A stretch of DNA of 30,124 nt from Immundisolibacteraceae bacterium (GTDB lineage Bacteria > Pseudomonadota > Gammaproteobacteria > Immundisolibacterales > Immundisolibacteraceae): the NCBI GenBank assembly GCA_016763355.1, contig JAESTY010000294.1, positions 1 through 30,124 of the forward strand, given 5' to 3'. Positions 1,565 to 27,396 of this stretch are shown piece after piece (positions within the stretch are counted from its first letter, which is position 1; each line of letters opens with the position of its first letter). Under the pieces are notes generated by a model. The model saw only the letters and a list, made by a program, of their open reading frames with translations, made no database searches and had not been told where the DNA came from. A program made the position numbers and the translations under genes.

Positions 1565-1603
1565 AATATACATCAGTTATCTATTTTGACTGCTCTGACC
1601 AGT
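1565..1603 (-). promoter_or_regulatory. Box promoter A: ACTGGTCAGAGCAGT-N18-TATATT
   Basis: Box 1603-1589, -10-like hexamer 1570-1565; one of 7 identically spaced copies. Confidence 0.75.
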
Positions 1604-1850
1604 GGATATGCTTCCAGTCGTGCGCCTTTATTTTCTCAACCGTTACGTTTGCTTTGTTCAGCGCAACCATTGCCCGCGCTAAATTCTGCTGCTTAACCTC
1701 TCCGCCAACTACAGCCATCGCCTCTATTTGCCCGTTTACTAGGTGATTATTAATCGCCTTAATCAATGGCTCGCTTTCAATCCTGGTGAATTCAAGGAGC
1801 AGCGCCACCCTCTCGGCGCTCTCGTTACCTGGGAGAAGTTTAATTATCAT
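1581..1850 (-). CDS. PapB/FocB-family (adhesin biosynthesis regulator-like) DNA-binding protein
   Basis: Pattern LLPGNESAERVALLLEFTRIESEPLIKAINNHLVNG...NLARAMVALN resembles PapB/FocB; likely start is ATG 1850, overlapping the exonuclease stop. Confidence 0.65.
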   Translation of the reverse strand: MIIKLLPGNESAERVALLLEFTRIESEPLIKAINNHLVNGQIEAMAVVGGEVKQQNLARAMVALNKANVTVEKIKAHDWKHIHWSEQSK

Positions 1851-2670
1851 TCCACTGCATTCCAAATGACATGCCAAGATTATCTAGCATTATGTCCATA
1901 TCTTTAATGAAGCTTGCTAACCCTTCGCGCTGTTCAGCGATCACCTTTTCGTCACGTTCGATTATTACATGGTGAAGCTTTTTGCAGTTAACGTTGCGCG
2001 GGTCAAACTTGGCGAAACCCCATTCTTTAAAGTCGGTGATCATCATTGAGAATTGGCACTGGATTATTTCCTCTGGCTTGATGTAACCATTGTGAGCAAA
2101 ATCAACCCATACGGCGCTAGACCATGGGCACTTTAATTCAAGCCCTTTTTCTTCGCCTGAAATCAAACCGTCTGGACTGCATCCTGCTCGCATTGTTTTG
2201 TCTTGATAGATAAACGCTATGCTATCGATTGTTTCAAACGTTGCCGCGCTGTATGCGTCGTTAGCTTCTTGTTCGTGGTCCTTGCCCCACTGTAGCGGCC
2301 TAGCTTTTATTTCATCAGGGAGCAATCCAGTTGCTACGCTAGCCACTAATTGACTCATGTAAGTTTGGCGAGTTGCTGACGGTATAATCGGCAATCTATT
2401 TCTAACAAAGTCTGTGCACGCTTGTTTTGTGCCAGTAAATACCTCGCCTTCAAAGCTAACTGAATTAACGCCGCGCTTATCACCTGAGATAATTTCAATG
2501 TCTTTAGGGAATGGAGCAACCGATCCTTTCATGAGCAAGATGTAAGCGTTTGACGCCGAAACAACGCCAGCTTTTGAACGGTGCCATTGGTCTGTTCCCT
2601 GCTCAATCTTCGACAAATCAAAACCAAGCGTTTCGCTATGTAGCTGCTGCTCTTCAATGAAATTTCTCAT
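1840..2670 (-). CDS. YqaJ-like / lambda-exonuclease family 5'-3' exonuclease
   Basis: WHRSKAGVVSAS, WGKDHEQEA, GCSPDGL, LELKCP, QCQFSM motifs; adjacent to recT. Confidence 0.92.
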   Translation of the reverse strand: MRNFIEEQQLHSETLGFDLSKIEQGTDQWHRSKAGVVSASNAYILLMKGSVAPFPKDIEIISGDKRGVNSVSFEGEVFTGTKQACTDFVRNRLPIIPSATRQTYMSQLVASVATGLLPDEIKARPLQWGKDHEQEANDAYSAATFETIDSIAFIYQDKTMRAGCSPDGLISGEEKGLELKCPWSSAVWVDFAHNGYIKPEEIIQCQFSMMITDFKEWGFAKFDPRNVNCKKLHHVIIERDEKVIAEQREGLASFIKDMDIMLDNLGMSFGMQWNDN

Positions 2671-3551
2671 GATTTGGCGCTCTCCATGTGTTCAATTACC
2701 TTTACCGATTCTTCGGCGGTTACATCTTCAAGTGATAAAACTTCGTGGCCTAGCTTCTTGCTTAACCATGGCAAATATTTATCTTGTGGTTTGCCGGCAA
2801 AAAGGCTGATAAGTTTATCACCGTAATTTTCGACCGGTGGCGGCGTAATATCTTTTTCAGTATTTGGATCAAATGCCATGTTCATTCCCTGCTCGCACAT
2901 CTGGACCATTTCCGATGCGTTGGGCAGTCGGCGGCATAATCGATGCGTAACAGCTTTGCAGCCCATTCGATCGTACCAGTCAACCCATGGACCAAAACCG
3001 CTTGTCTTGCTGGCTGCTTTAACCTTATCAATATCGGCCTTGGTCATTACTTCAATTAATAACTCGCCATTGGTAAGCTTGGCGTATGAGAAGCAAAGCA
3101 ATAAATTACCGCGATCACCAAACGTTGGGCGGTAGTTGTAATGCTCGCCGTTTTCGTCCATCCAATAATCGAATGCGTCATTCTCATAAACTGCCTTTGA
3201 TGCCATAGATGCTATTTGACCAGACATGCGGGCCCGCTTTATAACGCCATCAATCATCGGTAGGTATTGAGCTTTTTTAACCCAGGTGTAGGTTGTTTTA
3301 TCTTTAGTGTTGAACGTCACCAATGCCGCTTCTTTATTGTCAGGAACCAGGCCATCTCTGGCGCACATTGTTAGCGCCATAATAACAGAATCTTGATTGG
3401 CTTCGCATAGGTCTTTACTCTGGACCATGGCGATTGATGCACATCGGATAAACTGGTCGATAGTGGTGCCGCTCGGAAGCATAGCGTCGACGCCTGCCGC
3501 CATGAGTGCGCCGCTAAGTTCATTTTGTACTGTTGCTAATTCCATTTTCAT
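2667..3551 (-). CDS. recT: RecT/Red-beta family single-strand annealing recombinase
   Basis: MCARDGLVPDNKEAALV, QYLPMIDGVIKRARMSG, VYENDAF, WVDWYDRMGCKAVTHRLCRRLP; start probably ATG 3551 or 3545. Confidence 0.92.
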   Translation of the reverse strand: MKMELATVQNELSGALMAAGVDAMLPSGTTIDQFIRCASIAMVQSKDLCEANQDSVIMALTMCARDGLVPDNKEAALVTFNTKDKTTYTWVKKAQYLPMIDGVIKRARMSGQIASMASKAVYENDAFDYWMDENGEHYNYRPTFGDRGNLLLCFSYAKLTNGELLIEVMTKADIDKVKAASKTSGFGPWVDWYDRMGCKAVTHRLCRRLPNASEMVQMCEQGMNMAFDPNTEKDITPPPVENYGDKLISLFAGKPQDKYLPWLSKKLGHEVLSLEDVTAEESVKVIEHMESAKS

Positions 3552-3575
3552 TCTCGCTTGTTGTTTGATTCGGTA

Positions 3576-3614
3576 AATATACATCAGTTAACTGATTTAA
3601 CAGATTAGACCAGT
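3576..3614 (-). promoter_or_regulatory. Box promoter E: ACTGGTCTAATCTGT-N18-TATATT
   Basis: Box 3614-3600, -10-like hexamer 3581-3576; spacer contains the perfect palindrome ATCAGTTAACTGAT (3583-3596). Confidence 0.75.
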
Positions 3615-4105
3615 TGATCTCTATCGATTAACGTCACGCATTTACTTGATGATGGGCAGTGACCGCGCCAAATGAATAGCACCGAACCCTTGTTATTACC
3701 GTTGACTGGCTTTTTAGTTGCGGCATTGATGAAGCTTATGCGCCCACTAATAAAACGTACCTCGTTGCAGCTCTCGAACGCCATCTTGAACCACTTTACC
3801 GAAGTATCGGACGGAACTAGCATTACGGTTGTTGATCCCTGCTTGTGATGAAGCGCCGCGGCCTCTACCCATGGCTTAATGTTTGAGTAAGGAGGATTGC
3901 ACCAGTTGGATCCGCCCCAGGCTTGCCCAAATTTTAGCGCGTCATCTTCTTCATTCAGCCAGTCAGGGCATAGGCGATTTTCGTCACTAGCCGCAACATC
4001 ACATGTAAAATTAAACTCGTCATTTAGCTTATCGAACAGGCTTTGCGGCGTCTGCCATAGATCTTTAATATCAGCAGGCGTATTGCTTTTATGCTCGGTG
4101 CTCAT
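3605..4105 (-). CDS. dam: Phage N6-adenine DNA methyltransferase (phage Dam family)
   Basis: WQTP, DVAAS, WCNPPYS, VMLVP.DTSVKWF, GRISF motifs typical of the phage Dam family (T1/HP1 type). Confidence 0.9.
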   Translation of the reverse strand: MSTEHKSNTPADIKDLWQTPQSLFDKLNDEFNFTCDVAASDENRLCPDWLNEEDDALKFGQAWGGSNWCNPPYSNIKPWVEAAALHHKQGSTTVMLVPSDTSVKWFKMAFESCNEVRFISGRISFINAATKKPVNGNNKGSVLFIWRGHCPSSSKCVTLIDRDQLV

Positions 4106-4106
4106 T

Positions 4107-4343
4107 TCATTCTCCTAAAGTGATTTCAGTTGCAAAGCGGTCTAATATTTTAGCGTGAATTGCCTTTGCTTCTTCGGGGGTTTCGAATGTCCACACCTCG
4201 GTGTAGCATTCTTCATTATTCATTGCGGCGTAGCAAAAGTGTATTTTACCCTTTTGCATCTCTGTTTCTGGAAACCAGACACTTGCAACATTAGTTAACT
4301 GAATAGTCGTTGTTTGTTTCGGATGGCTTATAAGCATGGTCAT
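4107..4343 (-). CDS. Hypothetical protein (78 aa), first gene of the leftward operon
   Basis: ORF downstream of box promoter G, tightly spaced to dam. Confidence 0.7.
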   Translation of the reverse strand: MTMLISHPKQTTTIQLTNVASVWFPETEMQKGKIHFCYAAMNNEECYTEVWTFETPEEAKAIHAKILDRFATEITLGE

Positions 4344-4375
4344 TATTCTATTCCCGTTAGTTGTTTGATGCCGCT

Positions 4376-4414
4376 ACATTACACCCTGGATGGCTGGGAA
4401 CATATCCGACCAGT
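4376..4414 (-). promoter_or_regulatory. Box promoter G: ACTGGTCGGATATGT-N18-TAATGT
   Basis: Box 4414-4400, -10-like hexamer 4381-4376. Confidence 0.7.
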
Positions 4415-4420
4415 GGAGTG

Positions 4421-4448
4421 TTGACTTGTGTCACATTAAGAGTAACAT
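4421..4448 (+). promoter_or_regulatory. sigma70-like promoter TTGACT-N16-TAACAT for the arc-like/replication operon; spacer holds TGTGTCACA
   Basis: Direct reading; AAGGAG RBS at 4465-4470 follows. Confidence 0.65.
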
Positions 4449-4476
4449 TAACCACTCATAAATAAAGGAGCTAACA

Positions 4477-4638
4477 ATGCAAACAATACCAGTAGTAGTA
4501 AAGCCGACTAAGAGTCATAAAACAATGCGTATGGATGACAGGCTGATAATGAAGGTTCAGGAAATGGCTATAGCAGAGCGCCGAAGTTTCGGTAACATGA
4601 TCGAAGTCTTGGTTTATAAGTCAATGGAGAGTAAATAA
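4477..4638 (+). CDS. Arc/Mnt-like ribbon-helix-helix DNA-binding protein (53 aa)
   Basis: Manual translation MQTIPVVVKPTKSHKTMRMDDRLIMKVQEMAIAERRSFGNMIEVLVYKSMESK: beta strand KTMRM, helix A, RRS turn, helix B; strong RBS; TAATG overlap with the next gene. Confidence 0.75.
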   Translation: MQTIPVVVKPTKSHKTMRMDDRLIMKVQEMAIAERRSFGNMIEVLVYKSMESK

Positions 4639-4979
4639 TGATAGATGAAAACTGCGTAATCGTTAGCGACCTAGCATCATACTGTGCGCACTGCGGACAT
4701 ATTGAGCCATCAAACCTTAAGGATTTCGACGAGTCAGGATGCACTATAGGTCTAATATTTATTCATAAGGATGATTGCAACACCATGAGTGACGCAATGT
4801 CACACAGTATGTTTGTTGCATTATGGAACGCCAGAACTCACATGGAGGATAACGACGTGTTGTTGCGACGAGCATGCGAGAGTATTGACAGCGCAATGGA
4901 ACCGTTTTCTGATAAGTTTTTAAATAAAAATAGCCATTACATTAAGTGCGTAAGAGATCGAAACAAAGTCATGCACTAA
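4638..4979 (+). CDS. Hypothetical protein, weak Lar (restriction alleviation)-like pattern
   Basis: CAHCG ... HKDDC ... LWNAR pattern; coupled to the arc-like gene. Confidence 0.45.
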   Translation: MIDENCVIVSDLASYCAHCGHIEPSNLKDFDESGCTIGLIFIHKDDCNTMSDAMSHSMFVALWNARTHMEDNDVLLRRACESIDSAMEPFSDKFLNKNSHYIKCVRDRNKVMH

Positions 4980-5062
4980 CCACTCCGACCAACTTTATTA
5001 AGGTTGTAAAAAATCCCGCAGCAACGGGATAGTTAATTAACAAGATAAGAGGTAATTGTAAC

Positions 5063-5806
5063 ATGGCTAGATCAAGAAATATAAAGCCAGCATTCTTTGA
5101 TAACGATGACTTAGCCGATGTTGAGCCGTTAGGTAGATTGTTGTTTATTGGATTGTGGACGCTGGCAGATTTTAGAGGCAACCTTGAGTGGCGAGAACGT
5201 CGCATTAAAAAACAGTTGTTGGCGTATGACGATTGTGATGTTTCAAAACTCGCGATTAATCTGGATAAATCTGGATTCATACGGTTCTACTCGGACGGCG
5301 ACAAAACGTACCTGAATGTTAGTAATTTTAGCAAGCATCAAAACCCACACAAGAATGAGCGCGACAAGGGCAGTGAAATTCCAGAGTTAACAAATGACAT
5401 GCGCCAAGCCATTGATTTAAATACACTCACGATTAATCGCGATTTATCTGGATCAGAACGGAACGACTCTGATAGTAATCCTGCTGATTCCCTGATCCTG
5501 ATTCCTGATTCCAGATCCCTGATTCCTTCGTCTGGGCAGTCGGTTAAAAAACCGAAACCTGCCAAGCGGTTTGCACCGCCGACACATGAAGAAGCTTATA
5601 ACTATTTTTGTGAGAAGGGTCTTACTGATCAAAACGAGTCAGATAAATTTGTCGACTTCTACGAAATGAAAGGTTGGGTTGTCGGTAAAAGCAAAATGAA
5701 GGATTGGAAAGCAGCTGTTAGAAACTGGATGAAGAATTGCAAACCAGCACAACAGGAAGCCGATAGTTGGGATGATGACAGCTGGCACGAAAACTTAGGA
5801 ATGTAA
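5063..5806 (+). CDS. Phage replication initiator (O-like replisome organiser)
   Basis: N-terminal MARSRNIKPAFF...GRLLFIGLWTLAD domain, LIPDS linker, C-terminal FVDFYEMKGW...MKDWKAAVRNW; followed by a P-like gene. Confidence 0.85.
   Translation: MARSRNIKPAFFDNDDLADVEPLGRLLFIGLWTLADFRGNLEWRERRIKKQLLAYDDCDVSKLAINLDKSGFIRFYSDGDKTYLNVSNFSKHQNPHKNERDKGSEIPELTNDMRQAIDLNTLTINRDLSGSERNDSDSNPADSLILIPDSRSLIPSSGQSVKKPKPAKRFAPPTHEEAYNYFCEKGLTDQNESDKFVDFYEMKGWVVGKSKMKDWKAAVRNWMKNCKPAQQEADSWDDDSWHENLGM
5484..5526 (+). repeat. About six tandem CTGATTC-like heptamers within the initiator linker
   Basis: ctgattcc ctgatc ctgattc ctgattc cagatcc ctgattcc read directly. Confidence 0.7.
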
Positions 5807-5808
5807 CC

Positions 5809-6510
5809 ATGAAAGATTTAAAAGCCGTAATGAACAAGATGCAATCGAACATGCAGCAAACTCACATTGATAATCAACAGAGCGAGCTGCTTAAAAAACA
5901 AGTGTCTGATAATGCCAAGTACGTTATCGACAATCTTTTTATTGAACTCAAGTCATGTTACCCGGCGTGGAAGCAAGCGTTTGAAAATAAAGAATCGTGG
6001 TTATCTGCCAAAAAGACTTGGACCAAGGCGTTTATCGAAAATGGAATATCCAACCAACACCAGGTTTCAATAGGACTAGTCGAGGCTAGGAAAGGGACTA
6101 ATCCATTCTGGCCTAGTGCTGGTCAGTTTATTAGCTGGTGCGATGGGCCTCAAATAGACACGGACGAGGCTTTTAATCGCATGATCTCCCGCAAGAGGTG
6201 CCAATGTATTGCTGAATTTGAAACACGCACAGAATGCTCTACACGGTGCCGTAAGGAGTTGCCCGAAGATAAGGCGCGAGCGTTATTTAAGAAAGTGTTT
6301 CTTCGTCACCTTCAGCGCGTTAAAGATGGATCGCTAGTCGAACGTGATTTTAACCCGGCGCAGATAGTTAGTCCGGAGGTATTCCGCGAAACCGAAACGC
6401 CAGAGCAGCGTAACGTTAGGCTGGACGCTCAGATAATTGAAATGTTAGCGGCCGGCACTCCATTGCGTGGGCCATTTAAAAAACGTCACTTAGAAACTAA
6501 AGGTAAATAA
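5809..6510 (+). CDS. Lambda P-like replication protein (helicase loader)
   Basis: LFIELKSCYPAWKQAF, KKTWTKAFIENGI, GLVEARK...PFWPSAGQFISWC. Confidence 0.85.
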   Translation: MKDLKAVMNKMQSNMQQTHIDNQQSELLKKQVSDNAKYVIDNLFIELKSCYPAWKQAFENKESWLSAKKTWTKAFIENGISNQHQVSIGLVEARKGTNPFWPSAGQFISWCDGPQIDTDEAFNRMISRKRCQCIAEFETRTECSTRCRKELPEDKARALFKKVFLRHLQRVKDGSLVERDFNPAQIVSPEVFRETETPEQRNVRLDAQIIEMLAAGTPLRGPFKKRHLETKGK

Positions 6511-6511
6511 T

Positions 6512-7237
6512 ATGAGCAAAATTAATCTAATGCTAGGCGATTGCCTCGAGCGCATGAAGGAAATTGCAGACTGCAGTGTCGATATGATATTAACCGACCC
6601 GCCTTACGGTACCACAATGTGTAAATGGGACTCTTTGATTGATCTTGATTTGATGTGGCTGCAGCTAAAAAGAATTATCAAGCCTAGTGGCGCAATTGTG
6701 TTAATGGCTCAAACACCATTTGATAAAGTTTTGGGGTGCAGTAATTTAGAAATGCTTAGGCACGAATGGATTTGGGAAAAAACAAACGCCACCGGTTTTC
6801 TTAACGCTAAAAAAATGCCACTTAAAGCGCACGAAAACGCTTTGGTATTTTATAAGTCCCTACCGGTGTATAACCCGCAATTTACCCATGGCCACGAAAG
6901 GAAAACAGCAAAGCGCAAAACCGTTAATTCAGAGTGCTATGGCAAGGCGTTAAACCTTACAGATTACGATTCAACAAGTCGGTACCCAAGGAGTGTAATT
7001 AAATTTCAAAGCGACAAGCAAAAACAAAACCTTCACCCAACACAAAAACCAGTCGCGCTAATGGAGTACTTAATAAAAACCTACACCAACGAAAATGAAA
7101 CAGTACTCGACTTCACAATGGGAAGCGGTACCACTGGTGTTGCCGCTAAAAACCTGCAGCGTGATTTTATTGGCATCGAAATGGATAAAGGTTATTTTAA
7201 TGTTGCCAAGGAAAGGATTAATAAACATGGATGCTAG
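6512..7237 (+). CDS. DNA methyltransferase, N6/N4 (beta class)
   Basis: Catalytic ILTDPPY N-terminal, HPTQKP, SAM-binding VLDFTMGSGTTG C-terminal. Confidence 0.93.
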   Translation: MSKINLMLGDCLERMKEIADCSVDMILTDPPYGTTMCKWDSLIDLDLMWLQLKRIIKPSGAIVLMAQTPFDKVLGCSNLEMLRHEWIWEKTNATGFLNAKKMPLKAHENALVFYKSLPVYNPQFTHGHERKTAKRKTVNSECYGKALNLTDYDSTSRYPRSVIKFQSDKQKQNLHPTQKPVALMEYLIKTYTNENETVLDFTMGSGTTGVAAKNLQRDFIGIEMDKGYFNVAKERINKHGC

Positions 7238-7595
7238 TGACGTAGTTTATAACGGTATTTACAAGGGCGCAAAGGCTAAGGGTGCCGCTGATATCTCGGC
7301 GGTTAAGTACGCCAACATGGGCGCAAGGATGTACCGGCAATCATCGTTTTCTGGTGGCTCAGTTTCTAAGCTTATCGACAGCATGATACTGGAGGCTAGC
7401 AAGGAATCTAAGAAGTCTAAAAAGAGAATGGCACCAATGCCTGCGGTGATTGTCGCGGATAAAGTTAAGCCTAAGCCCAGGAGTAAGCCGTCAAAGCCTA
7501 AAGCGTTCGCAAGTAAGCCGTCGAGCATTGCAAGTCAGACGGTTCGCGATAGAAAGTTTGCTAGTGATGACGGCCTTTGGAGCAAGCCAATCTAA
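7227..7595 (+). CDS. Hypothetical 122-aa protein with Lys/Pro/Ser-rich basic C-terminal tail
   Basis: Likely start ATG 7227, overlapping the MTase stop; tail KVKPKPRSKPSKPKAFASKPSS. Confidence 0.7.
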   Translation: MDASDVVYNGIYKGAKAKGAADISAVKYANMGARMYRQSSFSGGSVSKLIDSMILEASKESKKSKKRMAPMPAVIVADKVKPKPRSKPSKPKAFASKPSSIASQTVRDRKFASDDGLWSKPI

Positions 7596-7633
7596 CTGGT
7601 CAGAGCAGTGTTTCAAGCAAAGTGATGTAATGT
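7595..7633 (+). promoter_or_regulatory. Box promoter B: ACTGGTCAGAGCAGT-N18-TAATGT
   Basis: Box 7595-7609, -10-like hexamer 7628-7633. Confidence 0.75.
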
Positions 7634-7653
7634 GAGTTAACTTAATTAAACGG

Positions 7654-7863
7654 ATGAACATCATGAGCAATCACAGCCCTTTCAACCCGAACATGACAGA
7701 GATAATCGAAGATCGCCAACGTAGCAGCCTTGGCAATCCTGAGAAAGTTAACGCGAAGATTAGCCAGGCAAGGTTAGCAACACGCCAAGGTATCGATAGC
7801 ATCTTGTATAGCCGCGAAATAGCCAAAATTAAATCATGCGCTATTGAGTGGTCGGAGCAGTGA
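7654..7863 (+). CDS. Hypothetical protein (66-69 aa)
   Basis: ORF directly downstream of promoter B. Confidence 0.65.
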   Translation: MNIMSNHSPFNPNMTEIIEDRQRSSLGNPEKVNAKISQARLATRQGIDSILYSREIAKIKSCAIEWSEQ

Positions 7864-7885
7864 AACCCGCTTAACGTGTTCTAAT
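7847..7885 (+). promoter_or_regulatory. Box promoter D: AGTGGTCGGAGCAGT-N18-TCTAAT
   Basis: Box 7847-7861, hexamer 7880-7885 with TGn extension. Confidence 0.65.
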
Positions 7886-7894
7886 TAGTCATCG

Positions 7895-8235
7895 AAACAA
7901 CAACGGAATTTGAATTATGAGCAAAAAAGAACAAAGTGAAGTTCTTGAAATTATTAGCAGTGGTGCTGATTCTGCGTACGGCATACTTCATGATGCTGAC
8001 CCTAAGTTAATATCTCGATTTAACCGAGTGGACGCGTCAATAGTTAAGCTACTAAGTGACGTTAAAGTGCATTTTCCTGACGCTATTTATTATACCGCTT
8101 CCGGAGGGTTTAATTTGATGCTGGGCGAGCCTCACAATGCGGATGGCGATAATCAAAGTGAGCTTATAGCTTGCGGCGGTAAAGCAAGCATTTCAGATGG
8201 CGATTTTTAAACAACAATGGAATTTGAATTATGAG
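7895..8235 (+). repeat. 27-bp direct repeat AAACAACAAYGGAATTTGAATTATGAG (7895-7921 and 8209-8235)
   Basis: 26/27 identity; each copy contains the RBS region and start codon of a gene. Confidence 0.9.
7917..8210 (+). CDS. Hypothetical protein (97 aa)
   Basis: ORF bracketed by the 27-bp repeats. Confidence 0.75.
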   Translation: MSKKEQSEVLEIISSGADSAYGILHDADPKLISRFNRVDASIVKLLSDVKVHFPDAIYYTASGGFNLMLGEPHNADGDNQSELIACGGKASISDGDF

Positions 8236-8482
8236 TACAACAATTGGCGAAAGCGTCACAATCGATATTAACGGTAAGACTCACGATGCAGTTGTAAGCG
8301 TTGACTATACCAAATTTGAAGCGGCAACTAACGATGACGAACAAATCGATGAGTTTTTCTACCTGTACGACTTTGCCATAAAGGATGGCGACGAATGGGA
8401 GCCAAGCAATGACATCAACCTTAGCTTTGTACGTGAAGATATTATCGAGCAACTCAAGGCGGCAAAGCGTGAGTCGATTTAA
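8231..8482 (+). CDS. Small acidic protein (83 aa)
   Basis: About 20 D/E versus 7 K/R by hand count. Confidence 0.75.
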   Translation: MSTTIGESVTIDINGKTHDAVVSVDYTKFEAATNDDEQIDEFFYLYDFAIKDGDEWEPSNDINLSFVREDIIEQLKAAKRESI

Positions 8483-8579
8483 CTCGGGGCGCAAAGTCCC
8501 GCGTCACGTTTATACGCTCATTGGATGCGTATTTGCCGTGGCGTTAATTGCAACTGTTATTAATGGAGTGTGGTGGTGA
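8469..8579 (+). CDS. 36-aa single-TM peptide (MSRFNSGRKVPRHVYTLIGCVFAVALIATVINGVWW)
   Basis: GTG start inside the upstream gene end; stop overlaps the next ATG. Confidence 0.5.
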   Translation: MSRFNSGRKVPRHVYTLIGCVFAVALIATVINGVWW

Positions 8580-8941
8580 TGAATTATTTAGAATTGAAGC
8601 TAATAAAGAAGATTGCTGACATTGAGGGTATTGATGTTGCGATGAACCTATCCAAAACTTATTGGTTAGACAAGGGCAGAGCAATACCTAATCCGGATGG
8701 CGATTGGTCGCTTGGTTATGAAGAGTACAACCCACTAACCGACAAAGCTTTGCTGTTTGACTTGATGGTTAAGCATAAAGTTGAGATTAACCACAATGAA
8801 GATGATAGTAATTTGGCGGTAATATGGCCTGGTGACATCGAGACATCAATGCTTATCGGTAATTACTTCGCGGAATTTAAAGGCATCGAAGACCTTCCCC
8901 GCGCAATCCTCGAATGCATAGTTGAGGCTAACCATGAATAA
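8579..8941 (+). CDS. NinX/ABA-sandwich-like phage protein
   Basis: YNPLTDKALLFDLMVKHKVEI...LPRAILECIV pattern resembles P22 NinX/DUF2591; start probably ATG 8579. Confidence 0.5.
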   Translation: MNYLELKLIKKIADIEGIDVAMNLSKTYWLDKGRAIPNPDGDWSLGYEEYNPLTDKALLFDLMVKHKVEINHNEDDSNLAVIWPGDIETSMLIGNYFAEFKGIEDLPRAILECIVEANHE

Positions 8942-9137
8942 CTTAAACGATTTAACGCTAGAGCAGAAAGCTACGATAGTTAAGAAGGCTAGATTTCGTG
9001 ACAAGCAACAAATGTCGATAAAGAATGTTGACCTTGTGGCATTCTTATTTGATTTAGAGCGAGCGCAGTCTATAAAATTATGCCATGAATTAGAGATATT
9101 CGACGGCGGAACAAGAGGAAAAGGCAGCAATATATGA
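8934..9137 (+). CDS. Hypothetical protein (67 aa)
   Basis: Coupled overlaps on both sides; start ATG 8934. Confidence 0.65.
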   Translation: MNNLNDLTLEQKATIVKKARFRDKQQMSIKNVDLVAFLFDLERAQSIKLCHELEIFDGGTRGKGSNI

Positions 9138-9322
9138 GCACCAAGACATCACCAGGCTTGATTACATTGCTTGAGAAGCACGATTACACGCCTACCGGTA
9201 AATGGCGGATAGACGTTAAGCAGGCGCATGAGTTTATGCCGCCAGCTCGCGTACCAGTCGAGAAGGAATCGCCGGTTGTGAAGAAGGTATCAGCGCTAGG
9301 CGTTACGGTAACTAAGCCGTGA
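9134..9322 (+). CDS. Hypothetical protein (62 aa)
   Basis: ATGA and GTGA overlaps with neighbours. Confidence 0.65.
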   Translation: MSTKTSPGLITLLEKHDYTPTGKWRIDVKQAHEFMPPARVPVEKESPVVKKVSALGVTVTKP

Positions 9323-9756
9323 AAATCGAATGTATCAAAGAGGCCGGCGGAATGTTTCGACCGGTCAACGATGCCGAATATGAGAAGACGGTTAAATTCA
9401 AAACGGGCGAGCAATACGTGATCGCCGTTAACCTTACTCGTAACCCGAAGTTTCACGCAAAAATGTTTGCCTTCTTTAATTTTTGTTTTAAATATTGGCG
9501 CGGAGATAATGAGTTTCAGTGTGAGGCTGCTCAATTTGATGTGTTTAGAAAGCACTTAACCGTGCTGGCTGGGTTTTATGATGAACTCTATACGATTAGT
9601 GGCAAATTAAGAATAGAGGCTAAATCGTTATCCTACGCGCAAATGAAGCAGGAAGAATTTGAGCAATGTTACAGCGCTTTAATTAACGCATCGATTAAAC
9701 ATGTATTTAAAGATGCTGACAACAACACGATCAATCAATTATACAATTTCTTCTAA
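9319..9756 (+). CDS. DUF1367 family protein (nin-region)
   Basis: RNPKFHAKMFAFF, FRKHLTVLAGFY, EAKSLSYAQMKQEEFEQCY. Confidence 0.85.
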   Translation: MKIECIKEAGGMFRPVNDAEYEKTVKFKTGEQYVIAVNLTRNPKFHAKMFAFFNFCFKYWRGDNEFQCEAAQFDVFRKHLTVLAGFYDELYTISGKLRIEAKSLSYAQMKQEEFEQCYSALINASIKHVFKDADNNTINQLYNFF

Positions 9757-9794
9757 CTGGTAAGAGCAGTTAAATCACTTATGTGATGTATATT
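9756..9794 (+). promoter_or_regulatory. Box promoter C: ACTGGTAAGAGCAGT-N18-TATATT
   Basis: Box 9756-9770, -10-like hexamer 9789-9794; spacer contains ATCACTTATGTGAT. Confidence 0.75.
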
Positions 9795-9819: not shown

Positions 9820-9918
9820 ATGAAAAAGTTTAAGAAACATTGGGAAGTATTTAGTAATTCGCCTGCTATCGTAGTGCTGGCGTTTTTGGGTTTTGTTTTA
9901 ATTATGTGGAAATTTTAA
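9820..9918 (+). CDS. 32-aa single-TM peptide (MKKFKKHWEVFSNSPAIVVLAFLGFVLIMWKF)
   Basis: Manual translation; AAGGAG RBS; first ORF after promoter C. Confidence 0.65.
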   Translation: MKKFKKHWEVFSNSPAIVVLAFLGFVLIMWKF

Positions 9919-9934
9919 TTATGTGGAAATTTTA
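9901..9934 (+). repeat. Perfect 17-bp tandem duplication ATTATGTGGAAATTTTA x2
   Basis: 9901-9917 equals 9918-9934. Confidence 0.9.
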
Positions 9935-9936
9935 AT

Positions 9937-10674
9937 ATGAATACGGATAAATTAATACCGGCCAGCTTTGCGCGAAAGATTACGCCGTTTGTAATGAAAG
10001 ACGTTATGTGTGACGCCCACGGAAGGGAGTACACAATTAAATCACAGTCTCAACTTGACGATTTTAATGGTAAGCATAAGAGTGATGGTTATTTCTTCGT
10101 CGTATCATTCGCAGACCGCCCGAACACAGGTAAGCAGCCCGTTGGCGATGATGTGGTTGTTGATACGTCATGGAATGATGGGCTCGCAAATAATGAAGGA
10201 GATTCAAAAGCTAGCGAATATACATGGGTATCTCGTTCTGGGCTGGTGTCATGGAAACCTAACCACGCCGCAATGCTCGCGCAATACCTCGACAGCAAGT
10301 GTCCCGCCGATGATTTTATGGAGGCTGTTGAGGTTGGCGTTGAGGTTAAACCAATCTACACGCAAGCTATGTGCGATGCGGGTGAGTTGCCTCCGGTCGG
10401 TAGTGATTTTATTGATGAGGATGGAGATGTAAATCTATCGGTTGCTCATTACAAAGGCGATGTTATAGGCATGTGTGCCGACTCGCCATTCACAACTCTC
10501 GCTAAGGATTGCAAACCAATCCGCACCAATGCCGATAAGTTGCGTGATGCTATCTTGGTAATAATCGATAAACACGTTGGCTTTTCATTGCTAGAGGCTA
10601 ACAGTGATTTGTCTGCTGAGTTGCTAGCATCCGACAAATTCACTATCACACTAAACGAGCCTACTAGTGAGTAA
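9937..10674 (+). CDS. Hypothetical mosaic phage protein (245 aa)
   Basis: Long ORF containing a KPIYTQAMCDAGELPPVGS block that I recall from other phage hypotheticals (not verified). Confidence 0.75.
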   Translation: MNTDKLIPASFARKITPFVMKDVMCDAHGREYTIKSQSQLDDFNGKHKSDGYFFVVSFADRPNTGKQPVGDDVVVDTSWNDGLANNEGDSKASEYTWVSRSGLVSWKPNHAAMLAQYLDSKCPADDFMEAVEVGVEVKPIYTQAMCDAGELPPVGSDFIDEDGDVNLSVAHYKGDVIGMCADSPFTTLAKDCKPIRTNADKLRDAILVIIDKHVGFSLLEANSDLSAELLASDKFTITLNEPTSE

Positions 10675-11257
10675 CGCTAAACGCCGATGCTGCCATTGCA
10701 AGGAGTATCAATTAAAAGATAGCGGGTTAATAATTCCCGCTGGCTTTTTCTGTAATCTCGATCACGCAATGGCGTACGGAAAAAAGAAAGGCAAGGCGAA
10801 GCGTGTTAAGCAGGAGCGCGCCGAACATAGAGCGGCTAAGGTTAGGCTCAAGACGGCAGGCGAATACGTCAAAGAGGCTCAGGCGTCGATTAATGCTTAT
10901 GTTAGAATTAGGGATTATGGTAATACTTGTATTTGCTGTGGCGCCCAAATGAATTGGCATAAACTGGGCGGAGCTGTTGACGCTGGTCACTACCGCTCAA
11001 GGGGTGCCGCTAGTCACATGCGGTTTAACCTGTTTAATATTCACGCGCAATCGGTTAAATGCAACCGGTTTCTGTCGGGCAATGTCGTCGACTATCGAAT
11101 TAACTTGATTAAGAAAATAGGATTAGCAAAGGTCGAAGCGATAGAATGCGATAACACGCCAAGAAAATTCACCATTGAATATTTGCAGCGAGTGAAAAAG
11201 ATATTCAATAAGAAAACCAGACTTTATAAAAGGAAATTTAGGGATGCTGGCAACTAA
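10667..11257 (+). CDS. ninG: NinG/Rap recombination endonuclease
   Basis: RRCCHCK, EAQASINAYVRIRD, CICCG, DAGHYRSRGA, RFNLFNIHAQSVKCN, GNVVDYRINLIKKIG. Confidence 0.92.
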   Translation: MSNAKRRCCHCKEYQLKDSGLIIPAGFFCNLDHAMAYGKKKGKAKRVKQERAEHRAAKVRLKTAGEYVKEAQASINAYVRIRDYGNTCICCGAQMNWHKLGGAVDAGHYRSRGAASHMRFNLFNIHAQSVKCNRFLSGNVVDYRINLIKKIGLAKVEAIECDNTPRKFTIEYLQRVKKIFNKKTRLYKRKFRDAGN

Positions 11258-11411
11258 CGACATAATAGCGGCGTTCATACTCGGCGCCTGCGTGTGGTTA
11301 GTTGTGTTTGCTCTAATCGGCTGGCTCACTTGTCGCGAAATGGAAAAGATTGAGCAAGCCGAAGTGCCAGAGGATTTAGACGATCGCGACGAGTTTAGTG
11401 ATTTCTATTAG
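11244..11411 (+). CDS. 55-aa peptide with N-terminal TM helix and acidic tail
   Basis: Manual translation MLATNDIIAAFILGACVWLVVFALIGWLTCREMEKIEQAEVPEDLDDRDEFSDFY; overlaps the ninG stop; its stop overlaps the convergent gene stop. Confidence 0.6.
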   Translation: MLATNDIIAAFILGACVWLVVFALIGWLTCREMEKIEQAEVPEDLDDRDEFSDFY

Positions 11412-13388: not shown

Positions 13389-15367
13389 TATTGACCTCCT
13401 AAATATTTAATTTCGTCTATTGTTAGATTTTCTTTGTAGAATCGTAGGTCGGCGATGCGGCCGAACTGCTGACTGGCGGAGTTAAGGTTTGCCCCTACGT
13501 TAACCGTACTCAACCCGATCGGCATGGAGACTGTAGTGTCTACGCCGATGCCAACCCCATCAACGAGCAACTCTACGTTGTCCTCTTGATAGTTTACAGC
13601 TATCGCATATCGGGTCCCTGCGTCCATGTTAAACGCCGTGAACAACGATGCTTGGAGCACCCCCCCCGCCGTTATGGACAAAGATATCCTCTCGGATGGA
13701 TTTCTAATTAATAATATCCTGTTATTAGTTGTCCCGTCATGTATATCTAGTATCGTTTGATTCGCGCCAGTATCACCAATAACGTCCGCCTTCAAAAATA
13801 TACTCCCCTCGCTCATGCGGAAGTTTCCTTCGACGGGGATTGATTGATTGTCTGCTGCTCGGGTTGATGCTTCAGATACGCTTGACGGAAATGATAACTC
13901 CTCCATCCGAGAGAATGCAATCTCTACATCTATCGGATTGTTTGACGAGTCAGTCCGTATTCCGAAATTCTGATTAGTACCAGTAGCTGATGTGTTTGAT
14001 AGCGAAAATCTAGTCCATTCCTCGGTTGCTGTCTCGTCCGTAGGGCTTTGTCCTGCTGTTTGTAGTCTAAAGGTCTGAGTTCCTGATGTTGCCCTCACCC
14101 AAAACGAGACTGTGCCATCGGCACCCGCGCCGCTTAACGACTGGAGTTGTCGTATCGATGCCTCACCGGCGGCCGCATTCTGAAACCTGAAGGCGGAAGC
14201 TAAACCGTCTGGGCCCGTCACGCCGGGCGTTAGAATCTCGTTAACCCTCGCCCACGCAGCATTACTAAAATCATCTGGAAAATCAAAAATATTAGGTACG
14301 CTACCCTCGAATAACCAGCCCGTCGTTTCTTCGCGTGGAAAATCGACCGCAGCAGTACGCAACACGTCGTTAATGTCTACGGATGTTGCTGTAGTGTTTC
14401 TTATTGAGCTTAACGACGTTGCAGGCTCATTGATTACGCGCACTAAATCATTTTTAGCGTATACGTGTAACAGCGGGTTATCGAGTTTTGAAAAATCAAT
14501 GTTGTCGATGTTTACAATAGGCAATTCTTCAAATCTAGCTATTGTGGTCGAGCCCGTGGCAACGCCTTTAAACACATCGCCGGGCTTCAAGGTTATATTG
14601 GTGCCGCCGGTGATCGTGCCTTCGTTGTTAGTAATAGATAACGCCGAATTAACCAGTGTGATATTGCTAACTGAGCTAGGGTCGGACTTAACCAGTATCG
14701 GGTCGCCAATCGAGTAAGACGCTTTAAGCGTTGCATTGATCGCCGTCGCAGCCGTTACTAAATAATTAACCGATGCGTTAACGTTAAACGATGAGCTTTT
14801 TGGTATCCATTTTTTAGACGATGCAGGCAACCAGTTTGTGCCGTCATCTGTCGTTGGGTCGTTGCCAAGATTATTAGCGGTTAATGATTTCCACATGCCG
14901 CCGTCAGTAGTTTGAGCCACCTCACCAATCGGATAGCTAACACCTGCACTGTAAATGCCGTTAAATGGTATCTCTTTCCACGCTGAATCAACTAGCGTCG
15001 GGTCATTGCCAACATTGCCGCCACCAACTGATTGATAGAAATTACCATCAGAGCCCTCAACAAAGTCGCCTTTATCGTAAACAACGATGCTATCCCATGG
15101 AGAGAAATCGCCAAGCTCTTTCTCGCCGCCAACTGGATCGCGCTCTGCGTATTGAACGTTGAATTGATCGAAGTAGACAACTTTTGCTGAGCCGCTAAAG
15201 AAAACGTTACCTAAGTTTCCATTTGGTCCGACTGGAACATTGGTTGGGTTGTTTATTTGTTCCAGCTCGTCCTTGAATGTTTCCAGTGCTGTGTTTGTGC
15301 CAGACTTGAAAAACAGCAAGTGACCGTTAGATTTCATGTCCGTGATTGGCGATACAAATCGTCCCAT
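13388..15367 (-). CDS. Tail fibre/receptor-binding protein: N-terminal virion anchor, two CBM5/12-like repeats, CBM4-like domain, C-terminal LamG/ConA-like lectin
   Basis: Position equals P22 tailspike; WDSIVVYDKGD..GNDPT and YSAGVSYPIGE..GNDPT repeats; GWLFEGSVPN..TRAAD; IAVNY..LLVDG..RIADLRFY. Likely start ATG 15367 with GGAGAG RBS. Confidence 0.8.
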   Translation of the reverse strand: MGRFVSPITDMKSNGHLLFFKSGTNTALETFKDELEQINNPTNVPVGPNGNLGNVFFSGSAKVVYFDQFNVQYAERDPVGGEKELGDFSPWDSIVVYDKGDFVEGSDGNFYQSVGGGNVGNDPTLVDSAWKEIPFNGIYSAGVSYPIGEVAQTTDGGMWKSLTANNLGNDPTTDDGTNWLPASSKKWIPKSSSFNVNASVNYLVTAATAINATLKASYSIGDPILVKSDPSSVSNITLVNSALSITNNEGTITGGTNITLKPGDVFKGVATGSTTIARFEELPIVNIDNIDFSKLDNPLLHVYAKNDLVRVINEPATSLSSIRNTTATSVDINDVLRTAAVDFPREETTGWLFEGSVPNIFDFPDDFSNAAWARVNEILTPGVTGPDGLASAFRFQNAAAGEASIRQLQSLSGAGADGTVSFWVRATSGTQTFRLQTAGQSPTDETATEEWTRFSLSNTSATGTNQNFGIRTDSSNNPIDVEIAFSRMEELSFPSSVSEASTRAADNQSIPVEGNFRMSEGSIFLKADVIGDTGANQTILDIHDGTTNNRILLIRNPSERISLSITAGGVLQASLFTAFNMDAGTRYAIAVNYQEDNVELLVDGVGIGVDTTVSMPIGLSTVNVGANLNSASQQFGRIADLRFYKENLTIDEIKYLGGQ

Positions 15368-21074: not shown

Positions 21075-21340
21075 ATTAAGATCCAGCCTTTTGTTTTGTC
21101 GCCAAGGATATTATCGTCGCGCTTTGCGTATCTGATGTTGCTAGCTGTGCCAGCGCTATCTTGATACGTTGCGCCCTCTGTAGCATCGACCACACCCTCG
21201 GGGTTGCCAGTACCAATGATTAACGATTGGTCGGTGATAATCTTTGTCCATGAGCGCATCTGAGCGGACTGCGAGCCATCACCCTCAACTATTGGCCGGT
21301 CGGTCGGTGGCTGAGTAACTCTAGTTACCATTTTGACCAC
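21071..21340 (-). CDS. Small tail protein at the P22 gp26 (needle/plug) position
   Basis: Follows the gp10-like gene; GTGNPEGVVDA..G..Y..GW motif seen in tail appendage tips. Confidence 0.6.
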   Translation of the reverse strand: MVKMVTRVTQPPTDRPIVEGDGSQSAQMRSWTKIITDQSLIIGTGNPEGVVDATEGATYQDSAGTASNIRYAKRDDNILGDKTKGWILI

Positions 21341-24419: not shown

Positions 24420-24894
24420 GCGTACCATCCTCTAGTAATATTGATCCACCTTGCTCTGTCAGTACTTCTGACTCTGGACAACCGTAGAAATGATTATTGT
24501 TAAACGTGTTTTCGCCTTCGTTGCCTGAGCCAATAGGTAAGGTGCAAGGCATGCTCGTTGGCCTAACTGTGATTGATAGCTTACGCATTGCGTTCTTGCC
24601 TTCGCGCGCGCTCACTGCAAGCGTACCGGCAACAGGGATGTCGTAAGAGGTAACTAATCGCATTGCTAGATTGAATATCAACCCCTCAATGGCACCGTCG
24701 GGGATCGTGATTGGGTCAGTAGGGTTGATAACCTTAGTGTATCCAAGAGAGATACCACTAGCGGCAAACGATGCCATCATGCGATTCATATAGCGCTTGG
24801 CTGTCTGAAAATCAACAGACTGAATGTCCTGCTCGCTAGCCTGAACTAGGATTTCTTGCAGAACATCTTTGATTACCGTTTCGGCGGTTTCCAT
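24409..24894 (-). CDS. Head-to-tail adaptor (P22 gp4-like)
   Basis: TAETVIKDVLQEI, MNRMMASF..GISLGY, IFNLAMRL..YDI, LPIGSGN. Confidence 0.88.
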   Translation of the reverse strand: METAETVIKDVLQEILVQASEQDIQSVDFQTAKRYMNRMMASFAASGISLGYTKVINPTDPITIPDGAIEGLIFNLAMRLVTSYDIPVAGTLAVSAREGKNAMRKLSITVRPTSMPCTLPIGSGNEGENTFNNNHFYGCPESEVLTEQGGSILLEDGTHES

Positions 24895-24953
24895 TTATAA
24901 CCTCATTGATTAACACTTAATGATGCGCACTCATAGAATGCGCATTTTAAATA

Positions 24954-25094
24954 CTACTTAGGTTTGGTTAGCGTGAAGCCTTTTAAATTTTTGTCACCGG
25001 CCTTTAGCAGTTTAACCATTTCAGGGTTAACCGTTAGCTTCTTGCCAGTTGGTGTATATATTACCGAAGGCTTATCTTCGTTGCTGTCAGACAT
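24954..25094 (-). CDS. 46-aa small protein between coat and gp4-like genes
   Basis: Manual translation MSDSNEDKPSVIYTPTGKKLTVNPEMVKLLKAGDKNLKGFTLTKPK; AAAGGT RBS. Confidence 0.65.
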   Translation of the reverse strand: MSDSNEDKPSVIYTPTGKKLTVNPEMVKLLKAGDKNLKGFTLTKPK

Positions 25095-25118
25095 AATTAT
25101 TACCTTTTCAATTAAAAT

Positions 25119-25140
25119 TAGCCGCCCGTTAAGGCGGCTA
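25119..25140 (-). terminator. Intrinsic terminator after coat gene (TAGCCGCC-N6-GGCGGCTA then ATTTTAATT)
   Basis: 8-bp stem immediately after the coat stop. Confidence 0.75.
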
Positions 25141-25144
25141 CAGT

Positions 25145-26428
25145 CTAGTTACCATGGCCTTGACCAGCGAAGAACGGATTAAGAACACCGTAAGCTGGGC
25201 GGAAATCGATACGAACCTTGTTTTCGTTCTCTAAGAAGCCAGAGCCCTTAGATACACGAAGCTGCATGCCGTCTGCTGTTTCTGCAAACGTATCAGTTGA
25301 GTGAAGGCGCTTAATAGGTACAGAAGCAACGGTAAACGCTTGCTTGTGCCAGAACAAGTTAGGCTGGATGATTGTATCAGCAGCACCGCCAAGGGTGATT
25401 ACTGCGCCTGCAACGATAGCTGCATCGGCTGTGTTGTACTGACCGTTAGCTTCGTTGATACAAGGACCAGTAACCGTAATGTTACCAGCGCCCGCGCCAT
25501 CAAGAGTCACATCGGCTGTCACTGTTGCAGTCCATGCTACTTGTGAGCCAGTTTCGTCGATTACAGCTAAACGAGTTGACAAGTTCAAGCGGCTAGGCCC
25601 AACGATTGTAACTGTTTCGCCTGCTTTGATTTCTAGGTCGAATTCAAATGCTGTTACACCGATAACCTGAGTCATAGTGTCTTTAGCTGCTAGGTAAGTA
25701 GCAACAGGAGTGCCGACAACAGTACCAGCACGATCCGCGCCTTGGTCACCAGTGCGGTAGTTAGCTAAAGTGGTTGCAGTCATTACTCGCATACCAGCAA
25801 AGTTCTCACTAATAGTTGCGCGAGTGTTAGCTGTCATTGAACCAGTCTCGCCGCCTAAGCTACGTTGATCACCAGCTAGTTTACGTTGAGCGAATGGGTT
25901 AACAGCATAATTCCACATGCCATCATTCGGGATGCCACTGGCTTGCATGATTGCGCCTGCTTCTGCTACATCACCCCAAGCATCACCGCCTGCGCCGATA
26001 GCCGTACCAACCGTACCAGCAAGTAATGCTGTGTTTGCCATCATGAACTTGGCGAAGTCTGTTTCAAAATCCGTAACAACACGAGTTGCCATAGGCGCCA
26101 ATAGTTCATCAAGCTGATCCATTTTGATTGCTTCGTCCGCCTCTTCGTAATCTACGAATACAGTGAAGTAATCTTGAACAACCGCTGATGCTTTACCGGT
26201 TATGATGTCGGACTTGCCTGAGCCGCTTGATACGTCACCGTTAGAAGTTCGGCGAGTGATGAAATCAGTAGGGCGTTTTACATCGATGGTATCGCCAGTT
26301 GAGCCATTGAACTTACCTGCGAACATTTGTGTATCAACGTTTTTAGTTAGGACTCGTTCAGATTCAAACTTGTCCAAGAAAGAGCGCATTAGTTTGCGCG
26401 TAAAATTACTGTCGAAATTATTAGCCAT
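25145..26428 (-). CDS. Major capsid protein, P22 coat family
   Basis: MANNF.., GDTIDVKRPTDF, EEADEAI, QPNLFWHKQAFTVASVPI, RIDFRPAYGVLNP. Confidence 0.93.
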   Translation of the reverse strand: MANNFDSNFTRKLMRSFLDKFESERVLTKNVDTQMFAGKFNGSTGDTIDVKRPTDFITRRTSNGDVSSGSGKSDIITGKASAVVQDYFTVFVDYEEADEAIKMDQLDELLAPMATRVVTDFETDFAKFMMANTALLAGTVGTAIGAGGDAWGDVAEAGAIMQASGIPNDGMWNYAVNPFAQRKLAGDQRSLGGETGSMTANTRATISENFAGMRVMTATTLANYRTGDQGADRAGTVVGTPVATYLAAKDTMTQVIGVTAFEFDLEIKAGETVTIVGPSRLNLSTRLAVIDETGSQVAWTATVTADVTLDGAGAGNITVTGPCINEANGQYNTADAAIVAGAVITLGGAADTIIQPNLFWHKQAFTVASVPIKRLHSTDTFAETADGMQLRVSKGSGFLENENKVRIDFRPAYGVLNPFFAGQGHGN

Positions 26429-26445
26429 GAGTGGCTCCTTTTAAA

Positions 26446-27267
26446 TTAATAGAATTTTGCGCCCTTGATGTTCTTATAACCATCATCGGGTACTGCGCCA
26501 TTACCAGACAGATTAGCCGCTGGAGCTGGGGCGTTGCTTGTTTTCGGTTTCAATGAGCTCGCCTTGGCTTTAATGGTATCTAAGAATGAACCAACATCAT
26601 ACGGACTCATGCCAGCCAACTGATAGCCGTCCTGCGGGTTTGCCGCCAGGTGTTTAACTATCAATGGACCATCGTCGCCGCCAATTATATGCATTACCAA
26701 ATCATCTGATAAGCCGTAATTAGCAACAGCGTTACCCGCCGCTTGTAATTCATCTTGCTTGATACCTAACTCAGTAGCTTTCTTGCTATAACTAGCGATC
26801 GTTTCCTGAGTCTTTACTGCTTTAGCTTGCTCTGCTTGTTGTTGACTTTGTTGCTGCTGCTGTAAATAAGCATTATTCTGCGCGTTGAAATTCGCGTTAG
26901 CCACAATAGCTTCGTCGCGAGCCTTCATCTTTGCATCGAAATCATCATCAAACGAATCTGGCATGTCTGGAATAGTACCAATTGCCGCTGCTTGACGTTC
27001 ACGCTCTTGCTGTTCAAACTGTGCGATTCTTGATGCTTGCGCGTCATTGTCTCGCTCTGCTTGCTTTAGCTGGCCGTACTGCTTATTAAATGCATCGTTA
27101 GACTTTTGCTTTGCTAACTCAACTTCATCAACTTGTTCATTGGATTCAGCCTGAACTTGCTCCCCACCTTCCGAGTGTGGGACAGAATCATTTGTTTCAA
27201 TGACTGCGTTAACGTCTTCGTTAATCGTTTCGCTAATCGCTTCATCGTTTTGCGGAGTATCACTCAT
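26446..27267 (-). CDS. Scaffolding protein
   Basis: Acidic, helical/coiled-coil, immediately upstream of coat. Confidence 0.85.
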   Translation of the reverse strand: MSDTPQNDEAISETINEDVNAVIETNDSVPHSEGGEQVQAESNEQVDEVELAKQKSNDAFNKQYGQLKQAERDNDAQASRIAQFEQQERERQAAAIGTIPDMPDSFDDDFDAKMKARDEAIVANANFNAQNNAYLQQQQQSQQQAEQAKAVKTQETIASYSKKATELGIKQDELQAAGNAVANYGLSDDLVMHIIGGDDGPLIVKHLAANPQDGYQLAGMSPYDVGSFLDTIKAKASSLKPKTSNAPAPAANLSGNGAVPDDGYKNIKGAKFY

Positions 27268-27337
27268 GTAATCGACCTTGTAGGCATAGGCTTTCGCCTG
27301 AGCAGCTATTAAAGGTTAGCTGTTGACCTGTGAACAA

Positions 27338-27366
27338 AGTATAACGCAATTAGCCGCAGTGGTCTA
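27338..27366 (-). promoter_or_regulatory. Candidate promoter for scaffold-coat operon: TAGACC-N17-TATACT
   Basis: -35-like at 27366-27361 (inside box F), -10 at 27343-27338, 71 nt upstream of the scaffold ATG. Confidence 0.5.
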
Positions 27367-27396
27367 ATCAGTGTATTTAGAGTGTCGTGTTAAGAT
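27358..27396 (+). promoter_or_regulatory. Box promoter F: AGTGGTCTAATCAGT-N18-TAAGAT
   Basis: Box 27358-27372, extended -10 TGnTAAGAT at 27388-27396. Confidence 0.72.

Follow-up and report, generated by a model that had tools for sequence, protein, structure and literature searches.

Box promoters of a P22-like podophage and of unrelated marine phages match fabA-type operators of the host regulator FadR

Introduction

Which protein reads a promoter that recurs seven times in one phage genome and carries a palindromic box in place of a −35 hexamer? The question is raised by contig JAESTY010000294.1, whose 30,124 nucleotides were analysed in full (the window) and make up the entire contig C233 of a 2.69-Mb metagenome-assembled genome (MAG; GCA_016763355.1, Immundisolibacteraceae). 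The window phage is a P22-like podophage with a lambdoid early region. Its nearest isolated relative is Pseudoalteromonas phage vB_PspP-H6/1 (H6/1; coat protein 61.5% identical), and a repressor, an integrase and a GntR-type gene were all not found in the window.

A first-pass annotation of this DNA had described the boxes as phage-specific and had ascribed them to a dimeric activator from the only early operon without a box. We arrive at a different answer. With a probability that we put at about 0.68, judged from the sequence, the boxes are operators of the host protein FadR within fabA-type, FadR-dependent promoters of the phage operons. The window phage and many unrelated marine phages would thus probably switch on most of their operons via this lipid regulator of the host. 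This reading draws on the sequence match between box and operator, the fixed geometry of the promoters, their conservation across unrelated phages and an identical layout at host genes.

Results

A degenerate pattern covering the seven copies matched seven times in the window and not once in 100 dinucleotide-preserving shuffles. In promoter orientation, the gap between the box and the downstream hexamer is exactly 18 nt in all seven copies. The hexamers read TATATT (promoters A, E and C), TAATGT (G and B), TCTAAT (D) and TAAGAT (F), and no TTGACA-like hexamer is present at any of the seven window promoters. A canonical TGn element (TGT) precedes the hexamer in D and F; in A, E, B, C and G a TG stands one base nearer the hexamer. 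A weight matrix built from 99 sites of other phages only and then applied to the window returned, above 8 bits, exactly the seven boxes and nothing more. Six of them scored 18.6-39.4 bits as compared to a shuffle maximum of 12.9. Box G is the weakest (11.1 bits, below the shuffle maximum), yet it is kept in the close relative L049. The coordinates, strands, 18-nt gap and lack of a TTGACA-type −35 that had been described before are thereby borne out. A ribosome-binding site and a likely start codon lie 20-40 nt past the −10 of the window promoters, in line with the gene start that had been claimed near each of them. The box had also been presented as an inverted repeat. It does have the palindromic make-up of a site for a dimer, but the palindrome is imperfect, with a nearly invariant left half (ACTGGTC) and a variable right half.

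Contrary to what had been proposed, the box is not phage-specific, since it matches a host operator and recurs unchanged in phages without a common regulator. The published 17-bp FadR consensus, a palindrome around a TGGT...ACCA core, is aaCTGGTCnGACC(T/A)Gtt (PMC9329746), to be compared with (a)ACTGGTCnGAGCAGT(t) for the window box and the bases on either side of it. The seven copies agree with the consensus at 11-14 of its 16 specified positions, CTGGTC in the left half being nearly invariant; the own site of Escherichia coli fabA reaches 14/16. Perfect FadR palindromes, e.g. ACTGGTTAGACCAGT and ACTGGTCTGACCAGT, occupy the same N18 position in related phage promoters.

Not only the operator but also its placement is found at host genes. 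As an activator, FadR binds upstream of the −35 (PMC9329746); it switches on fabA in E. coli, Vibrio and Shewanella, and acyl-CoA detaches it from DNA (PMC5733061, PMC4537474, PMC9329746). Upstream of E. coli fabA, ACTGATCGGACTTGT is followed after 19 nt by TATCCT. Henry and Cronan reportedly placed a FadR 17-mer at −47 to −31 of this promoter in 1992, which agrees with the box-N19-TATCCT layout found here. In genomes of the Thalassotalea order, fabA carries ACTG(T/A)TCGGAGTTGT-N19-TAAAGT, and this site is 14/15 identical to the phage variant ACTGGTCGGAGTTGT. A Thalassotalea MAG has box-N18-TATGAT at a fabB-like ketoacyl synthase gene and two sites upstream of an acyl-CoA dehydrogenase gene. 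The FadR of this MAG has a DNA-binding head that hardly differs from the one in the E. coli protein, which would explain the invariant box.

The boxes, −10 hexamers and downstream genes of the window are as follows.

1589-1603, minus strand: box A, ACTGGTCAGAGCAGT, FadR-type site, 39.4 bits
1565-1570, minus strand: −10 of promoter A, TATATT, 18 nt past box A
232-1524, leftward: genes of promoter A, namely 139-aa (amino acid) product (1105-1524), 123-aa product (672-1043) and endolysin (232-624)
3600-3614, minus strand: box E, ACTGGTCTAATCTGT, 29.8 bits
3576-3581, minus strand: −10 of promoter E, TATATT
1840 to about 3551, leftward: genes of promoter E, RecT-like (2667 to about 3551) and exonuclease (1840-2670)
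4400-4414, minus strand: box G, ACTGGTCGGATATGT, inside a 134-bp divergent control region, 11.1 bits
4376-4381, minus strand: −10 of promoter G, TAATGT
3605-4343, leftward: genes of promoter G, 78-aa product (4107-4343) and DNA methyltransferase (3605-4105)
7595-7609, plus strand: box B, ACTGGTCAGAGCAGT, 36.2 bits
7628-7633, plus strand: −10 of promoter B, TAATGT, driving a 69-aa gene (7654-7863)
7847-7861, plus strand: box D, AGTGGTCGGAGCAGT, 32.5 bits
7880-7885, plus strand: −10 of promoter D, TCTAAT after TGT (extended −10)
7917-9756, rightward: genes of promoter D, from a 97-aa product (7917-8210) through NinB (9319-9756)
9756-9770, plus strand: box C, ACTGGTAAGAGCAGT, 35.4 bits
9789-9794, plus strand: −10 of promoter C, TATATT
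9820-11257: genes of promoter C, 32-aa membrane peptide (9820-9918), 245-aa product (9937-10674) and NinG (10667-11257)
27358-27372, plus strand: box F, AGTGGTCTAATCAGT, 18.6 bits
27391-27396, plus strand: −10 of promoter F, TAAGAT after TGT
27423-28503: target of promoter F, an antisense cassette of small open reading frames (ORFs) between portal and scaffold

Boxes B, D and C are located in the nin region (NinB, NinG). The arrangement at box F is matched in H6/1, where a box drives gp08-gp05, an antisense cassette between portal and scaffold. On the opposite strand of window positions 27338-27372, box F also lies 14 nt upstream of a TATACT facing the scaffold gene, so that a protein bound to F would cover the −35 region of this possible leftward promoter. 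The 123-aa product of promoter A (672-1043, minus strand) carries a long Gln/Gly-rich tail, and its only matches are PHROGs of unknown function; it may be the protein that had been named as an SSB before.

Downstream of promoters A, E, G, D and C, the leader starts with (C)ATCAAAC(A)AC or a near variant 3-6 nt past the hexamer, for instance at 4358-4370 (minus strand) and 7890-7903 (plus strand). This conserved start may be an initial-transcribed or a translation-enhancing element. The box G variant with its weak right half, ACTGGTCGGATATGT, is found unchanged in L049 and in the unrelated phages BS5 (36856-36870), HS2 (11279-11293) and G001:C84 (23220-23234); it precedes differing genes, a leftward early-type operon in the window and the terminase operon in BS5.

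A second contig of the same MAG (C312; G000:C312, L208) spans 6.7 kb (1-6700) at a GC content of 43% and is probably the missing end of the window phage genome. It carries the following features.

3-689: large terminase, N-terminal part, running off the contig end
689-1141, minus strand: small terminase
3807-3821 and 5848-5862, minus strand: two boxes, one identical to E and one to A

If C312 belongs to the window phage, one of its boxes probably heads the terminase (late) operon, and the BS5 terminase operon is likewise headed by a box. The term middle regulon, under which the box-driven genes had been grouped, is therefore too narrow.

Beyond the window, an exact box search of IMG/VR returned many contigs with a box, 18 nt, a −10, a short leader and a gene. 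The box-N18-(TGn)-−10 module was found at more than 100 promoters of phages that have no regulator gene in common with the window phage, among them the Pseudoalteromonas phages H6/1, BS5 and HS2. Complete genomes with 6-9 module promoters and essentially no proteins in common with the window are BS5, G004 (a 43.9-kb IMG/VR genome), G002:C1 (a 31.8-kb contig in the Thalassotalea MAG) and G001:C84 (a BS5-like contig in an 'Arcobacter' MAG). PSA-HS2 (L348) carries seven box promoters, and PSA-HP1 (L349), which infects the same Pseudoalteromonas strain, carries no boxes. No boxes were found either in Vibrio phage 41E34.2, which shares its replication-initiator gene with the window phage.

The spacing is as strict in these phages as in the window. 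Across IMG/VR, the box was followed by TAnnnT after 18 nt in 68 stretches, after 17 nt in four and after 19 nt in none, whereby the looser pattern ACTGGTNNGACCAST also matches P-loop (GTGKTT) coding sequence and about half of its 68 sites are not promoters. Among 112 box matches picked regardless of a −10, TAnnnT stood at offset 18 in 25 and at other offsets in about two. In a set of 121 distinct sites, 54% have a canonical TGn extended −10, and TATAGT and TATATT are the predominant hexamers. The best TTGACA match does not exceed 3/6 in 118 of these 121 sites. Their leaders are short and vary little, with a median of 29 nt between −10 and start codon (interquartile range 28-31 nt). Blastp at 1e-2 revealed no protein family common to the window, H6/1, BS5, G004 and G002:C1. 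A site that stays identical while all else diverges points to a conserved host protein as its reader. The isolated module-bearing phages infect FadR-bearing taxa, i.e. Pseudoalteromonas (H6/1, BS5 and HS2) and Enterovibrio. In Enterovibrio phage 1.070.O (L351, Zobellviridae), two FadR-type sites 67 bp apart lie in a leftward control region (43712-43793), and one of them has the N18-TATATT layout. Four contigs of 1.6-3 kb from Cellvibrionaceae MAGs (L129, L131, L136 and L144) each contain a near-identical 60-nt promoter module of box, GC-rich spacer and TATAGT, and these contigs are related to the IMG/VR loci L219, L240 and L246; repeated modules of this kind may break the assemblies of these phages.

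The earlier proposal of a phage-encoded activator has to be weighed against these comparisons. A dimeric protein from the box-less early operon (the 53-aa ribbon-helix-helix (RHH)-like protein, the 113-aa protein or ORF 7095-7595, which includes the 122-aa candidate named before), or an undetected mini-FadR analogue, would turn on a middle regulon. The geometry indeed suits a class-II-like activator, the palindrome taking the place of the −35 at constant spacing to the −10, and this part of the earlier model stands. Moreover, the early operon is the sole one without a box. It runs rightward, encodes the 53-aa RHH-like and 113-aa proteins, an O-like initiator, a P-like loader and a methyltransferase, and has a sigma70-like promoter (4421-4448, plus strand, TTGACT-N16-TAACAT) that is a consensus match only, of a kind no commoner than in shuffles. 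The second part of the model, an activator encoded in this operon, found no support. None of the 53-, 113-, 78-, 69- and 97-aa proteins and the ORF 7095-7595 product has a homologue at phmmer E<=5 in the box-bearing phages H6/1, BS5, G004 and G002:C1, and an RHH protein is not expected to copy a FadR operator. The Arc-like label of the 53-aa protein goes back to a weak RHH_5 match (E 0.059), and neither the PapB-like label of the 97-aa protein nor a single-stranded DNA-binding protein found support in Pfam or PHROG.

A phage-encoded dimeric binder does have a counterpart in other phages. Several box-bearing phages encode mini-FadRs, proteins of about 75 aa that are homologous to the winged-helix head of FadR and end in a conserved SEEH(F/Y) tail. 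Each of their genes sits within a box-driven operon.

G002:C1, about 14384-14600, plus strand: mini-FadR
G001:C84, about 11160-10940, minus strand: mini-FadR
IMG/VR loci L210, L214 and L215: mini-FadR

The presence of FadR-head homologues in some box-bearing phages ties the box to FadR-type recognition. A mini-FadR was detected neither in H6/1, BS5, HS2 and G004 nor, by phmmer, a five-member profile and hhalign, in the window and C312, and the Pfam model found no GntR domain in the window, BS5 or G004. With blastp at 1e-2 also negative, a shared phage regulator was rejected for the window. The window contig is incomplete, which leaves some room for such a gene; all in all, we consider a phage-encoded activator unlikely.

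Discussion

The promoters of the window phage are best explained as sigma70 promoters with a −10, often extended by TGn, in which a −35 hexamer is replaced by an operator of FadR, the fatty-acid-responsive regulator of the GntR family, at about −45 to −31. We infer from the comparisons above that FadR binds the boxes, that it activates rather than represses, where transcription would start and what kind of host is involved. According to this model, a ligand-free FadR dimer on the box would recruit or stabilise host RNA polymerase, as at host fabA and fabB. All operons apart from the rightward early replication operon would then depend on host FadR, including the recombination genes, methylase, nin region, lysis genes, accessory cassettes and probably the late operon of C312. 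As long-chain acyl-CoA frees FadR from DNA, it should turn the box promoters down, and the numerous operators on replicating phage DNA might in turn titrate FadR.

Several observations weigh against this model. At box position 11, a conserved G (GAGCAGT) does not fit the FadR consensus, and the 17-mer lies 1 bp nearer the −10 than at E. coli fabA. A host activator that is present from time zero leaves the temporal ordering of phage genes unexplained by itself. Most serious is the apparent host. Neither the MAG to which the window is assigned nor any of 14 genomes of its family was found to contain FadR_C; this MAG is nearly devoid of GntR domains, and its fabA has no FadR site. Two Cellvibrionaceae MAGs that contain box-bearing fragments lack FadR as well. 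Provided that the window contig is correctly binned, FadR is excluded as the binder, and the box would have to be bound by another host factor of FadR-like specificity or read by a modified RNA polymerase. The MAG shows no sign of such a regulon, as all its CTGGTCnGACCAG matches are intragenic and its fabA is site-less; regulatory FadR-like sites in this MAG were rejected on the same grounds. Furthermore, the closest isolate, H6/1, infects Pseudoalteromonas, and such contigs demonstrably end up in wrong bins, as did a BS5-like Pseudoalteromonas phage contig now assigned to an 'Arcobacter' MAG. Together with the GC content of the contig (45.6% vs 50% in the MAG), this favours the view that the window contig is probably misbinned. 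We therefore regard a true host without FadR as very unlikely. Sister phages come from Thalassotalea and Rheinheimera MAGs in which FadR was found, as it was in 40 of the 61 genomes from the Thalassotalea order.

FadR might also bind the sites to a different end. It is a repressor at most host sites (PMC9329746) and could occlude the phage promoters until acyl-CoA rises; or the phage sites, numbering about nine in each of many phage genome copies, could outnumber the FadR of the cell, soak it up and derepress the host fad regulon. Fatty-acid degradation functions are in fact up in HS2-infected and HP1-infected Pseudoalteromonas, and the listed host proteins of HS2 include FadR (PMC11170926). 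As the rise also occurs with HP1, which has no boxes, it is no evidence for titration. Repressing FadR sites overlap the transcription start (PMC9329746) and do not lie at −45 to −31, and the strict 18-nt phasing, the absent −35 and the layout identical to fabA and fabB argue for a positive role. A mainly negative or titrative function is thus quite unlikely in our judgement, and FadR-dependent activation remains the preferred reading.

Four other known elements were considered and rejected. A LexA box (CTG-N10-CAG) has the wrong spacing, the window box being CTG-N7-CAG. The spacing is also wrong for a sigma54 promoter (GG-N10-GC), and a −10 is conserved 18 nt downstream. For a P1 C1 operator, there is no C1-like gene, and the host fabA parallel is stronger. 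A promoter for a T7-type phage polymerase does not fit a bipartite motif with a sigma70 −10 and a lambdoid gene content without a polymerase.

Carried further, the model leads to a more speculative picture, which we hold to be possible though doubtful. In a large group of marine gamma-proteobacterial phages, nearly all non-early transcription would be wired to FadR and infection gated by acyl-CoA status, fatty acids being supplied by lysed neighbours or algal lipid. FadR would be titrated and host fatty-acid metabolism reprogrammed, and some phages would escape ligand control by means of a sensor-less FadR head. If FadR is indeed the reader, these phages would be a clear case of virulent-type phages that adopt one host metabolic regulator as a general promoter factor, which would couple phage gene expression to the lipid status of abundant marine heterotrophs, and perhaps burst timing as well. 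In practice, the promoter model of a FadR box, N18, TGnTATAGT and a leader of about 29 nt can be used to annotate transcription units in phages of Pseudoalteromonas, the Alteromonas group and some Vibrionaceae. PSA-HS2 with seven boxes and PSA-HP1 with none, both grown on one host with time-resolved multi-omics already published, provide a ready natural control. A word of warning is that box-bearing phage contigs are often misbinned.

Our literature search found no paper that gives the box sequence or connects phage promoters with FadR. Known phage systems resemble the window promoters in part. In the promoters of T4 MotA, Mu Mor and C, and P2 Ogr, the activator site likewise replaces or overlaps the sigma70 −35 and is present in many copies per genome. 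These activators are phage-encoded, and their boxes differ from the window box. In the window phage, by contrast, no phage activator co-occurs with the box, and the box matches a host operator. Phage P1 also has many dispersed 15-17-bp sites over promoters, the C1 operators, which are asymmetric and bound by a phage repressor; the resemblance in the TCTAAT core is superficial. Unlike P1, the window phage lacks a gene of the C1 type, and both the phasing of its boxes and their resemblance to host fabA speak for activation. The marine phages with a mini-FadR share boxes and promoter module with the window phage, in which a mini-FadR gene was not detected.

The closest counterparts are the FadR-activated fabA and fabB promoters of gamma-proteobacteria such as E. 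coli, Vibrio and Shewanella. The phage promoters share with them the operator sequence, its location next to or across the −35 position (the phage 17-mer lies at about −46 to −30) and a −35 that is poor or missing. Long-chain acyl-CoA would be expected to release FadR from both kinds of promoter. In contrast to E. coli fabA, the phage spacing is 18 and not 19 nt, and the phage spacer contains no FabR operator. The phage promoters also differ from fabA and fabB in their often extended −10 and in the right half-site, a conserved variant (GAGCAGT). Moreover, the module resides in a phage genome, where 7-9 copies serve as the standard promoter of most operons. Compared with what has been published, the promoter mechanism is a known one, whereas the context in which it is met here is new and widespread.

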